38,677 nucleotides of DNA from the IMG/VR virus record IMGVR_UViG_3300045988_139913; one strand, given 5' to 3'. Both the position numbers and the translations under genes were made by a program. Origin of the DNA: a virus. Its lineage: Duplodnaviria > Heunggongvirae > Uroviricota > Caudoviricetes. The notes under the pieces were generated by a model. The model ran no database searches. It was given only the letters and a program-made list of their open reading frames with translations, and was not told the origin of the DNA. Numbering within the stretch: position 1 is the first letter of the stretch; every line of letters starts with the position of its first letter. Below are positions 1,605-38,586 of the stretch, one piece after another.

Positions 1605-1700
1605 TGAAGCGGCGCACGAAAAGCGCGAAAGCGTTTCAAATAAAATACGAAAACTCAAAACTTTCGCGCTTCAATTGAGACAGTTGTTTTATGTATGTCA
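1605..1700. other. Prophage right end (attR) with transposase-binding repeats (R1-R3 region)
   Basis: TGAAGCGGCGCACGAAAAGCGCGAAAGCGTTTCAAATAAAATACGAAAAC with repeated CGAAA motifs, as in the Mu right end. Confidence 0.75.
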
Positions 1701-2144
1701 GTTTCGTTTACATTTATACGTCTTAAAAATATTCACATCATCTCGGATATAAAGATTTTTTCCTGATTTATCAACGATAAAATACTTTATAACCGCAGGA
1801 TTTCTAGTCAAAGCATAGAGATAATCAGTCCCTTTAATCTTTTCATCCTTGTCTTGTTCGTCAATTTGGCCTGTTTCTATCTGAGTGTATAGTTCACCTG
1901 TATCAAGGTCTGTCCATGACCCCATATCAACGCCCATATGCATACGAATACCGTGGCAGGTCCAAAAACCAGAGGCAGGGGCTTTATTTGCAACACTCTT
2001 ATCTGGATCTATCCCGGCGGACCTTAAGACTGCATCAGCAGCCACTTCAGGATCAAAATCTTTTTCTTGAGCGTGATTGACTGAGGAGGCGGTTAGTACG
2101 AATAGGCTGATGATGGTACTGATTAGCAATTTTGATTTTTTCAT
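1698..2144 (-). CDS. Secreted/periplasmic protein of unknown function (148 aa); moron between mom and attR
   Basis: N-terminal Sec-type signal peptide MKKSKLLISTIISLFVLTASSVNHA; own GGAG RBS; strongly AT-rich relative to flanking phage DNA; two Cys (C63, C146). Confidence 0.7.
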   Translation of the reverse strand: MKKSKLLISTIISLFVLTASSVNHAQEKDFDPEVAADAVLRSAGIDPDKSVANKAPASGFWTCHGIRMHMGVDMGSWTDLDTGELYTQIETGQIDEQDKDEKIKGTDYLYALTRNPAVIKYFIVDKSGKNLYIRDDVNIFKTYKCKRN

Positions 2145-2188
2145 CTAATATGCTCCGTATGTGAGTAAATACATAAATTTATATGATA

Positions 2189-2926
2189 CTAATCAGAACT
2201 GCTTTTTGGGTATGGCTGAATCCTGAATAGTTTGGTATTTAGCCGCTTTCTTGCTCGCTTGTTCAGGAACCTGATGTAGCGATACTGATTAAATTTGTGC
2301 ACCACGGCACGCTCTTTATTAGCCCGTAAATACATGCCTCGTTGTCCACCGCGCTTAATTGCGTTCATCGTTATCTCGTGATACCACTCACCATCCAGCT
2401 CGTAGAACGTGCTTTCATGGCTGCCAATAAAATCAAAATTTGACGCCTGATACACAACGCCAGCACGTCCGCAGCGTTCGTCTGCAAAAGACTGAACCCA
2501 CTCCACTGACGGATACAGTAACCTTATGGTTTTCAGTGCATAACTGATGGCCCGTGATTCAGAGTTGCGGGGCATGTCGTCGTGTAGCCACATGCGGTTC
2601 AACTCCATATAGCCCCGGTTATCCGTTTCAAGCACGACACGACGACCAGAGTTGGGGTTAAGGGCATATCCCCACTGGAGAACGCCAACCAGATCGCGTC
2701 CGCTGAATACTCCCAAGTGGAGGTAAGAGTTATTCACAAAACGGCGGGAATAGTGCTTTGTCTGAATAATTGTGCGGGCCAGCCAGCAGGATATGGTTTC
2801 AACGCGCAGCTCCTTTGAACCATAGCCAACAATCTGGCTTTCATACTCAATAACGCACGGTTTCGTCAGAATGCGTGATTTCTTCTCTTTTCCCACAATG
2901 TTTCTCCGTGGGATGCTCGCAGGCAT
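2189..2926 (-). CDS. mom: Mom DNA-modification protein
   Basis: Overlaps the 3' end of com as in Mu; last gene before the right end region; true start uncertain (ORF-track start is the longest possible). Confidence 0.8.
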
Positions 2927-3035
2927 TCAGCATTATGATATGACGTTTGCAACGCGGACACCTGATTTCAATGTGATCAAAGGAATCCGCCTTAAATAAC
3001 AGTTTGTTGCAGTTTTTACAGCGAATTGATTTCAT
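2847..3035 (-). CDS. com: Com, zinc-finger translational activator of mom
   Basis: 62 aa, [34 protein letters not shown]... with CxxC...CxxC; AGGAGG RBS; matches Mu Com as I recall it. Confidence 0.9.
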
Positions 3036-3093: not shown

Positions 3094-3150
3094 TTATTGG
3101 GGCATAATCGATCTGTATTGCCGATCGATTTGATTGATTCGATCGTCGTT
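3094..3150 (-). promoter_or_regulatory. Pmom control region: dyad TTATTGGGGCATAA (candidate C-activator site) plus three clustered GATC (Dam) sites
   Basis: TTAT-N6-ATAA dyad at ~3094-3107 about 60 bp upstream of com ATG; GATC at ~3110, 3123, 3141; matches the known Dam/OxyR/C-regulated architecture of Mu Pmom. Confidence 0.6.
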
Positions 3151-3711
3151 TTCTATATGCGTTCGTTTCGCGGGGTGTTTTTTATACAGAGTTGACAGAG
3201 CCACATCATAGATCAATGCAACCTGCTTGCGGGGGATTCCTTGTGCTAATAAACGCCCGGCCTGCTCCCATTCCGCTTTGGTTAGTTTAGGTGGTCGCCC
3301 ACCAATACGGCCTTTATTTCTGGCGGCAGCAAGTCCAGCCATCGTTCGCTCGATGATTAGTTCTCGTTCCATTTCAGCCAGGGCACCCATAACGTGGAAG
3401 AAAAAACGCCCCATTGGAGAAGATGTGTCTATGCTGTCGGTAAGACTGCGAAAATTAATCCCTCGCTCCCGTAGTTCCCCGACGAGGGAAATCAGATGTT
3501 TCATGCTTCGCCCGAGGCGATCCAGTTTCCAGACAACCAGTGTGTCACCTTTTTGAAGGCGCTTTAACGCGCGTTTTAATCCAGGTCTGTCTGTCCTTGT
3601 TCCGCTTAATTTATCTTCAAATATTTGTTCACATCCTGCACAAACAAGAGCGTTTCGTTGCAGGTCTGTATTCTGGTCATTTGTTGATACCCTTACATAG
3701 CCAATCAGCAC
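3094..3711 (-). CDS. gin: Gin serine DNA invertase
   Basis: N-terminus MLIGYVRVSTNDQNTDLQRNAL typical of Gin/Hin/Cin/Pin resolvase-invertase family; adjacent to gix site. Confidence 0.95.
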   Translation of the reverse strand: MLIGYVRVSTNDQNTDLQRNALVCAGCEQIFEDKLSGTRTDRPGLKRALKRLQKGDTLVVWKLDRLGRSMKHLISLVGELRERGINFRSLTDSIDTSSPMGRFFFHVMGALAEMERELIIERTMAGLAAARNKGRIGGRPPKLTKAEWEQAGRLLAQGIPRKQVALIYDVALSTLYKKHPAKRTHIENDDRINQIDRQYRSIMPQ

Positions 3712-28701: not shown

Positions 28702-29064
28702 TTACCCGAACAGACGAGCGCGAAAACGAAAGGAGATCCAGAACGTCAGCAATCCGGCCAGCGCCCAGATGACATGCTCAGGACCCGTTTTCAGTTGAGA
28801 CGTTGCCATCACGGCTAATCCCAGCCCGGACAGACTCCCCAGCCAGGTCAGAGGCCAGACGAACCGGGCAAAATGTTCAGGCACCCGGCAGCTCATTATC
28901 AGCGCATCCAGGCAATCACCGGCAACACATAAAGCAACACTGAAAACCGAGGCACAGCAAAACATCAGCGCGCGCCAGCCACAAAACAGACTTATCCACA
29001 ATAACAGCGCCAGTAACACCACCGATAAAAAATCAGGCCACTGACGAGCAGAACGCTCAGACAT
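28702..29064 (-). CDS. Multi-pass membrane protein (Mu gp19-like)
   Basis: ORF-track ORF 28702..29115 trimmed to internal Met; 3 predicted TM segments. Confidence 0.55.
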   Translation of the reverse strand: MSERSARQWPDFLSVVLLALLLWISLFCGWRALMFCCASVFSVALCVAGDCLDALIMSCRVPEHFARFVWPLTWLGSLSGLGLAVMATSQLKTGPEHVIWALAGLLTFWISFRFRARLFG

Positions 29065-29275
29065 AATGTTTCTCCCTGTAAAGCAGGCAATGATGAAGAA
29101 TTTCCGGCATATCAACTGACTGCCAGCCTTTCATGTAATAACTGCCGTGGGTGCCATCATGACCGGTATAGTCGCGGGGCGCAGGACGTGGCCCACCGGC
29201 GACACGGTGCAAAACCTCCTGACGCAGCCGCTCACGTCTGCCAAGATGAAAGGATGCATTCCAGCCTTTACCCAT
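29057..29275 (-). CDS. Small protein, first gene of middle operon (Mu gp18-like)
   Basis: 72 aa directly downstream of the early terminator. Confidence 0.5.
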   Translation of the reverse strand: MGKGWNASFHLGRRERLRQEVLHRVAGGPRPAPRDYTGHDGTHGSYYMKGWQSVDMPEILHHCLLYREKHYV

Positions 29276-38581: not shown

Positions 38582-38586
38582 CCCGC
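38582..38586. repeat. Target-site duplication CCCGC (left-end side of prophage)
   Basis: Identical to 1600..1604. Confidence 0.8.

Follow-up and report, generated by a model that had tools for sequence, protein, structure and literature searches.

What is a small AT-rich gene for a secreted protein doing between mom and the right end of a Mu-like prophage, and in which phase of the phage's life would it be expressed? The question was raised by IMG/VR virus record IMGVR_UViG_3300045988_139913, a DNA stretch of 38,677 nucleotides (hereafter referred to as the window), in which a preliminary description, made from the letters alone and with Mu as the reference prophage, had seen a moron at positions 1608–2188. 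We found that the prophage is D108, not Mu, and that the open reading frame (ORF) concerned is already known: it is the catalogued gene 56 of D108, which encodes the ‘D108-specific protein’ (gp56), is annotated in GenBank/RefSeq and is named in UniRef. Mu and D108, the two classic transposable phages, differ in few respects, and gene 56 is one of them. Taken as a whole, our reading is that it is an accessory gene of D108 for an exported barrel protein that would bind to the cell envelope in the lytic phase, and we assign this reading a probability of about 0.55. The gene and its parts are located in the window as follows.

1698–2144, minus strand: gene 56 coding sequence (CDS), 148 amino acids plus stop; protein identical to D108 gp56 (ACV50316), with a match to PHROG 15648.
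2070–2144, minus strand: gene 56 signal peptide as read from the sequence, residues 1–25 (MKKSK, hydrophobic core, VNHA/Q, the slash marking the putative cleavage site).
1701–1979, minus strand: conserved core of gp56, residues 56–148; 8-stranded beta-barrel predicted from AlphaFold2 and the alignment.
2153–2156, minus strand: Shine–Dalgarno sequence GGAG, 8 nt 5′ of the gene 56 ATG.

Both ends of the prophage identify it. The right-end region was 100% identical to Mu_3F6 and 99.5% identical to D108, with a CDS labeled ‘56: D108-specific protein’ under the match, and the left end (repressor c, ner and A) was 99.9% identical to D108, while Mu matched only inside the transposase gene. The gp56 of the window is identical to that of D108, the genes differing by one synonymous nucleotide, and it matched PHROG 15648 from end to end (residues 1–148 of 148, E=7.6e-88). 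An exact-sequence look-up returned the name ‘D108-specific protein’, the UniRef RepID GES_BPD10 and at least 1000 contigs. In the D108 record the protein likewise lies between mom and the right end, with strand and flanking DNA the same; no difference was found. Neither this record nor PHROG 15648 gives a function, and neither literature searches nor the papers on SfMu and the Yersinia Mu-like phages yielded any statement about gene 56. When Pfam, NCBIfam and PADLOC were searched with the single protein and with 14 aligned family members, no match appeared, and PHROGs gave only PHROG 15648. Thus, the preliminary description was right to call the gene uncharacterized.

Several lines of evidence bear on whether the frame is a functional gene. 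At the base composition of the region, at which about 6.8% of codons are expected to be stops, the chance of an open frame of 148 codons is about 3e-5 (our own arithmetic). Comparison of gene 56 with a homologue of 89% amino-acid identity, carried by the right-end variant L018, gave a dN/dS of 0.14 at a dS of 0.36. Across homologues of 25–61% amino-acid identity, 26 alignment columns were invariant, both cysteines included, and the invariant motifs comprised PASGFW-C-G, HM, W77, KG-Y, F-VD-GKNL-DD and Y-CKR. Gene 56 is under purifying selection and is a real gene.

The family to which gene 56 belongs is tiny. A profile search of 1.84 billion cluster representatives yielded 11 clusters, and a scan of one genome per species across 185,579 species yielded 4 loci. 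The Mu-like prophages that carry the family reside in Escherichia, Salmonella, Citrobacter, Cronobacter, Hafnia, Kluyvera and Apirhabdus, that is, in enterobacteria and close relatives. For the core, the pI values predicted in the different members extend from 4.9 to 9.0, and no overall charge is therefore conserved. The PDB, searched by sequence and by profile, contained no relative of gp56; a single match at E=0.33 was a chance one. The family is an orphan, found so far only in Mu-like prophages. Since the gene itself was on record, what is new here is this restriction to Mu-like phages, the slot that the family usually occupies at the end of the early operon (see below), the evidence for selection and the prediction of the fold.

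As the preliminary description had noted, the ORF begins with what reads as a clear Sec signal peptide. Its N-terminus, MKKSK-LLISTIISLFVLTA-SSVNHA/QE, has the expected order of basic, hydrophobic and small residues, and the full start, MKKSKLLISTIISLFVLTASSVNHA followed by QE, contains no lipobox cysteine and no cysteine near the cleavage region. By these features, an N-terminal signal peptide and a signal peptidase I site with no lipobox cysteine, gp56 would be a periplasmic protein exported by Sec, and cleavage is likely to occur after A25. All full-length members of the family have a signal-peptide-like N-terminus, the sequence of which is not conserved.

For the remainder of the protein, an AlphaFold2 model built with a 14-sequence alignment, having a mean pLDDT of 78, predicted a core of about 93 residues made of eight strands, preceded by the signal peptide, modeled at low confidence, and by a variable linker that includes one helix; the linker is missing in several homologues. 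In blocks of 10 residues, the pLDDT values were 80 for residues 51–60, 90–97 for residues 61–130, 78 for residues 131–140 and 92 for residues 141–148. In the model and the alignment, strand 1 ends with the invariant C63, and the invariant C145 comes just past strand 8. Because these two residues would be neighbors in an up-and-down barrel, we infer a C63–C145 disulfide that closes it. Foldseek searches of the PDB and of viral models returned nothing at an E-value of 0.001 or better, the E-values being 0.09 or worse. Structure prediction, which had been put forward for the mature protein as a way to check the earlier proposal, thus led to a predicted 8-stranded barrel with no family match. Gene 56 is no random foreign insert; it belongs to a conserved family of exported proteins, predicted barrels, that is restricted to Mu-like phages.

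Within that group of phages, gene 56 is optional. It was found at the same place in five sequenced phages (D108, Mu_3F6, vB_YpM_3, vB_YpM_23 and PhiR68_1) and was absent from Mu, SfMu, vB_YpM_5, vB_YpM_6 and Tongde. The block containing it occurs in 6 of 5426 complete E. coli genomes, and com–mom at 95% identity or better occurs in 46 records. Gene 56 is accordingly an optional, dispensable accessory gene of the D108 lineage, and Mu and SfMu do without it. The preliminary description had named conservation at this place in canonical Mu/D108 as a finding that would speak against it; such conservation is seen in D108, in which the gene is annotated at this very position, and not in Mu. The region around the block is laid out as follows.

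1605–1683, no strand assigned: D108 prophage right end (attR), beginning with TGAAGCGGCGCACGAAAA; transposase-binding sites; homologous to the right end of Mu.
1684–2207, minus strand: D108-type block of 524 bp, GC content 0.374, replacing 44 bp of Mu.
2189–2926, minus strand: mom (Pfam Mom, E=1.9e-75), with the D108-type C-terminal extension KSSSD.
2847–3035, minus strand: com, which activates translation of mom and stands first in the late mom operon.
3094–3711, minus strand: gin, next to com in the gene order gin, com, mom, gene 56.

The sequence TGAAGCGGCGCACGAAAA at 1605 is the right end of a Mu-type transposable phage, present in the window in inverted orientation. The segment 1605–1683 matched Mu bases 1–86 at 84% identity, and the D108 record annotates transposase-binding sites at the corresponding positions. 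In the pairwise alignment, homology with Mu then ceases and resumes at 2208. Between these points, the block consists of gene 56, about 60 bp 5′ of the gene and 14 bp 3′ of it. Gene 56 begins 44 nt past the mom stop codon on the same strand, and the transposase-binding block lies 14 nt beyond its end. The GC content of the block compares with 0.518 for the prophage, and only 0.05% of prophage windows of equal size are as low. The G-segment boundary and the right end are 2174 bp apart, as against 1693 bp in Mu, in which mom is the last annotated gene. In these respects the preliminary description proves accurate: it had proposed an AT-rich insertion relative to Mu, lower in GC than the neighboring phage DNA, that enlarges the terminal segment and places a 148-codon ORF between mom, the last gene of Mu, and the right end. 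A heteroduplex study of 1981 reportedly showed D108 to have an insertion loop of some 0.5 kb close to its right end.

The upstream edge of the block falls inside the last codons of mom (2189–2207), as a result of which the Mom C-terminus reads ...PYPKSSSD, five residues beyond that of Mu Mom (...PYP). The adjoining part of the block, approximately 2175–2207, includes these last five D108-type mom codons and is common to phages of the vB_YpM_5 type, which lack gene 56. The right ends of vB_YpM_5, vB_YpM_6 and Tongde are of a third kind, which has only this part in common with the D108 type. The DNA just beyond mom looks like a recombination joint. As a separate observation, the stretch from mom to the phage end that is of this third type lies at 850–1215 of L025 (vB_YpM_5) and at 200–604 of L026 (Tongde); both have no gene 56 and have different terminal repeats, and what they have in common with D108 is confined to the C-terminal extension of Mom and some 20 nt past the stop codon.

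Where, then, does the family reside outside the D108 lineage? The flanks could be read at 11 diverged loci, of which protein look-ups supplied seven and the genome scan four; Salmonella, Hafnia, Kluyvera and Apirhabdus are among the hosts. At each of these loci the homologue sits in a Mu-like prophage, between gemA and a gene for a C-type activator. The single Mor/C-family activator at this site precedes the endolysin gene and is 75% identical to the C protein of the window and 39% identical to its Mor. Five co-directional loci were examined. At four of them the gap of 1–60 nt between gemA and the homologue contains no terminator hairpin, and at all five a strong hairpin, AAATCCCGC...GCGGGATTTTTT, follows the homologue. 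Because no hairpin comes after gemA and a strong one comes after the gene, most of the diverged homologues appear to close the lytic early operon, a placement that weakens the lysogenic-conversion reading. At these loci (L004, 7906–8529, and the equivalents in L006, L013, L016 and L019), the homologue holds the place that mor has in Mu, last before the early terminator. We also observed that, in loci of the L004 type, a TATAAT-like hexamer directly follows the T-run of the terminator (AAATCCCGC..GCGGGATTTTTT); these prophages have only one activator of the Mor/C family.

Since all readable diverged homologues lie in Mu-like prophages, the D108 block is not likely to have come from outside this phage family. 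Gene 56 appears instead, from the gene orders compared, to be a gene of the Mu-like family that was relocated to the right end and carried little beyond its ORF and ribosome-binding site. The gemA–mor–C region of the window itself contained no second copy or remnant of gene 56. It does contain, at 28702–29115 on the minus strand between mor and C, an ORF of 137 amino acids with several hydrophobic segments; the slot of the exported barrel gene elsewhere is therefore held by a membrane-protein gene in D108 and Mu.

How gene 56 is transcribed in D108 was approached by scans of its flanks. A consensus scan 5′ of the gene detected no promoter site scoring 9/12 or better, a weak or atypical promoter being beyond the reach of such a scan. 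At relaxed stringency there was one 8/12 site, TACCCA-18-TATCAT, which is no more than the background of this prophage, 0.9 sites per 256 nt. A scan for terminators found none between mom and gene 56 and none between the gene 56 stop codon and the prophage end, and RNA folding of the two flanks was not significant (z about -1.5; for 1590–1720, z = -1.6). On the minus strand at 1612–1672, the inverted transposase-binding sites can pair as a hairpin of at least about 10 bp followed by UUUUCG (z = -1.6 versus shuffles); this hairpin might weakly terminate transcripts leaving the prophage. The ribosome-binding site that had been attributed to the gene is present, and the stretch ACGGAGCATATTAGATG around the Shine–Dalgarno sequence is kept in L018, the intergenic DNA between mom and gene 56 being otherwise not conserved between the two. 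The annotation of Mu places a late promoter 5′ of com. With no detectable promoter or terminator, and with gene 56 starting so close behind mom on the same strand, read-through from com–mom is probable; the likeliest arrangement, which we adopt as the default, is that gene 56 is co-transcribed with the late, C-activated com–mom operon. Of the moron proposed in the preliminary description, the polymorphic presence and the deviant GC content are thus retained, whereas a promoter and a terminator of its own, which would mark an autonomous moron, were not found, no candidate promoter rising above background in either scan.

From these data we propose the following course of events. The D108 lineage would have acquired gene 56 by recombination with another Mu-like phage, with essentially nothing transferred but the ORF, its ribosome-binding site and some 60 bp of DNA 5′ of it. 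The gene would be expressed by read-through of the late com–mom operon in D108 and from the early operon in most relatives; either way, production of gp56 would fall in lytic growth. The protein would then be exported by Sec and cleaved at about A25, and oxidation of C63 and C145 in the periplasm would tie the first strand to the last. It would most likely act by binding a component of the envelope of the infected cell, as an inhibitor or blocker. Binding rather than catalysis is suggested because the domain is small, has no catalytic motif and has an architecture common to many periplasmic inhibitor and immunity proteins. T4 Spackle and Imm and T5 Llp are small, exported phage exclusion proteins that are made in the infected cell, act at the envelope and are dispensable on laboratory hosts. 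By analogy, gp56 resembles them in being small, phage-encoded and apparently exported in the lytic phase; it differs in that they have other folds, or are lipoproteins or membrane proteins, and no homology to gp56 was found. The receptor of Mu and D108 is lipopolysaccharide, not a protein. By the same analogy, the most plausible class of role would be to exclude other phages or to keep the cell wall protected until lysis, and even so we would give it distinctly less than an even chance. More speculative still, and in our view rather unlikely, is the generalization that the gene 56 family forms a previously unrecognized class of exported effectors specific to transposable Mu-like phages: disulfide-locked barrels, produced in the lytic phase, that bind an envelope component of the host or of a competitor and that, as mobile cassettes, have moved between two accessory positions in the Mu genome layout, one closing the early operon and one at the right end. 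If this were true, such an effector could block superinfection or inhibit a cell-wall hydrolase or a periplasmic defense factor.

The strongest competitor to a lytic accessory gene is a true moron, transcribed from a weak promoter of its own in the repressed prophage and protecting the lysogen in the periplasm, by superinfection exclusion or by immunity to a toxin, a colicin or the type VI secretion system. Three sets of loci weigh against our reading and in favor of this one. L018 has lost the mom promoter, com and the 5′ part of mom, and yet its homologue of gene 56 is intact directly after gin, a gene that is expressed in lysogens; the spacer 5′ of this homologue is longer than in D108 and different in sequence, and the locus argues for a value of gene 56 independent of the mom operon. 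In two Salmonella-type loci (L010, 7828–8460, and L015, 5843–6460), the homologue is inverted with respect to all flanking phage genes, and in L004 a second copy of the hairpin stands also 5′ of the homologue. Because of the antisense position in the former and the hairpin bracketing in the latter, some phages must be able to transcribe the homologue from a promoter of its own. The presence or absence of gene 56 among near-identical phages and the strongly deviant GC content of the block fit a moron as well, and both are, together with the position at a module boundary, traits of the bor/lom-type morons of lambdoid phages (Hendrix and colleagues). Gene 56 departs from those morons in that neither a promoter nor a terminator of its own is detectable and in that its relatives mostly lie in a lytic early operon. 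Specifically, no sigma-70-like promoter stands above background within 250 nt upstream, the intergenic region has only the ribosome-binding site in common with that of L018, the gene comes after gemA with no hairpin in between at four of the five co-directional loci, in an operon controlled by the repressor, and PADLOC gave no match. On balance we regard the moron as a serious but tentative alternative to the lytic accessory gene. As to the structure of these loci, the homologue in L010 and L015 lies between two similar hairpin sequences, which suggests that the cassette was flipped by recombination between inverted hairpins and that it needs its own promoter there. In L018, at 1–1263, the deletion brings the 3′ parts of gin and mom together, and the mom part also has a premature stop codon.

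Two more specific functions and the absence of any function remain to be weighed against the lytic, envelope-binding accessory protein. As a periplasmic inhibitor of a cell-wall hydrolase, similar to PliC/MliC or T4 Spackle, gp56 would bind an enzyme of the lysozyme type, brought by an incoming phage or present outside the cell, and so prevent premature lysis, and the ancestral slot two genes upstream of the endolysin gene would suit such a role. However, PliC/MliC were not the best structural matches, many unrelated barrels scoring as high or higher; the loop motifs of E. coli MliC (SASGARY and WSKGDEA) have no aligned counterpart; and Mu does without gene 56 despite a near-identical lysis cassette. 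We consider this function improbable. Membership in the PliC/MliC family itself was rejected, with an hhalign probability of 2% against E. coli MliC and no match of Pfam MliC in 14 members at E-values up to 10. More generally, PliC/MliC, the serralysin inhibitors of the LupI/AprI type and the staphostatins have no sequence or profile relationship and no inhibitory loop motif in common with gp56, and the structural likeness to calycin-type inhibitors was no better than that to Cap15 or streptavidin. Lipocalins carry a GxW motif and a C-terminal pair of basic residues, and the invariant G59-x-W61 in strand 1 and K146-R147 at the C-terminus of gp56 recall them; the 8-stranded up-and-down barrel of the lipocalins is also what the gp56 model predicts. 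A periplasmic carrier of a small hydrophobic or anionic ligand would follow from this likeness, but the barrel of about 93 residues is far below the 160–180 or so of lipocalins, the model has no helix after strand 8, Pfam gave no lipocalin match, and the Foldseek E-values were not significant, so that such a carrier appears to be a long shot. Judging from the model, gp56 would resemble both PliC/MliC and the lipocalins in general fold only and stand outside both families by sequence. Finally, the dispensability of the gene, as evident from Mu, and the lack of a recorded function could be taken to mean a chance ORF or a decaying remnant. This is effectively refuted by the selection and conservation data, with the invariant columns persisting down to 25% identity, and the number of contigs carrying the protein, the confident fold prediction and the low chance of an open frame of this length speak against it too.

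The surroundings of the prophage provided a further observation. The D108 prophage extends over 1605–38581 and is flanked by a 5-bp target duplication, CCCGC, at 1600–1604 and 38582–38586. It lies within the portal gene (ORF 450–1607) of an SfV-like prophage, the segment 1500–1604 being 100% identical to the SfV portal sequence. Since the D108 prophage interrupts this gene, one prophage has inactivated another; the portal reading frame runs across the junction once the insert and one copy of the repeat are taken out.
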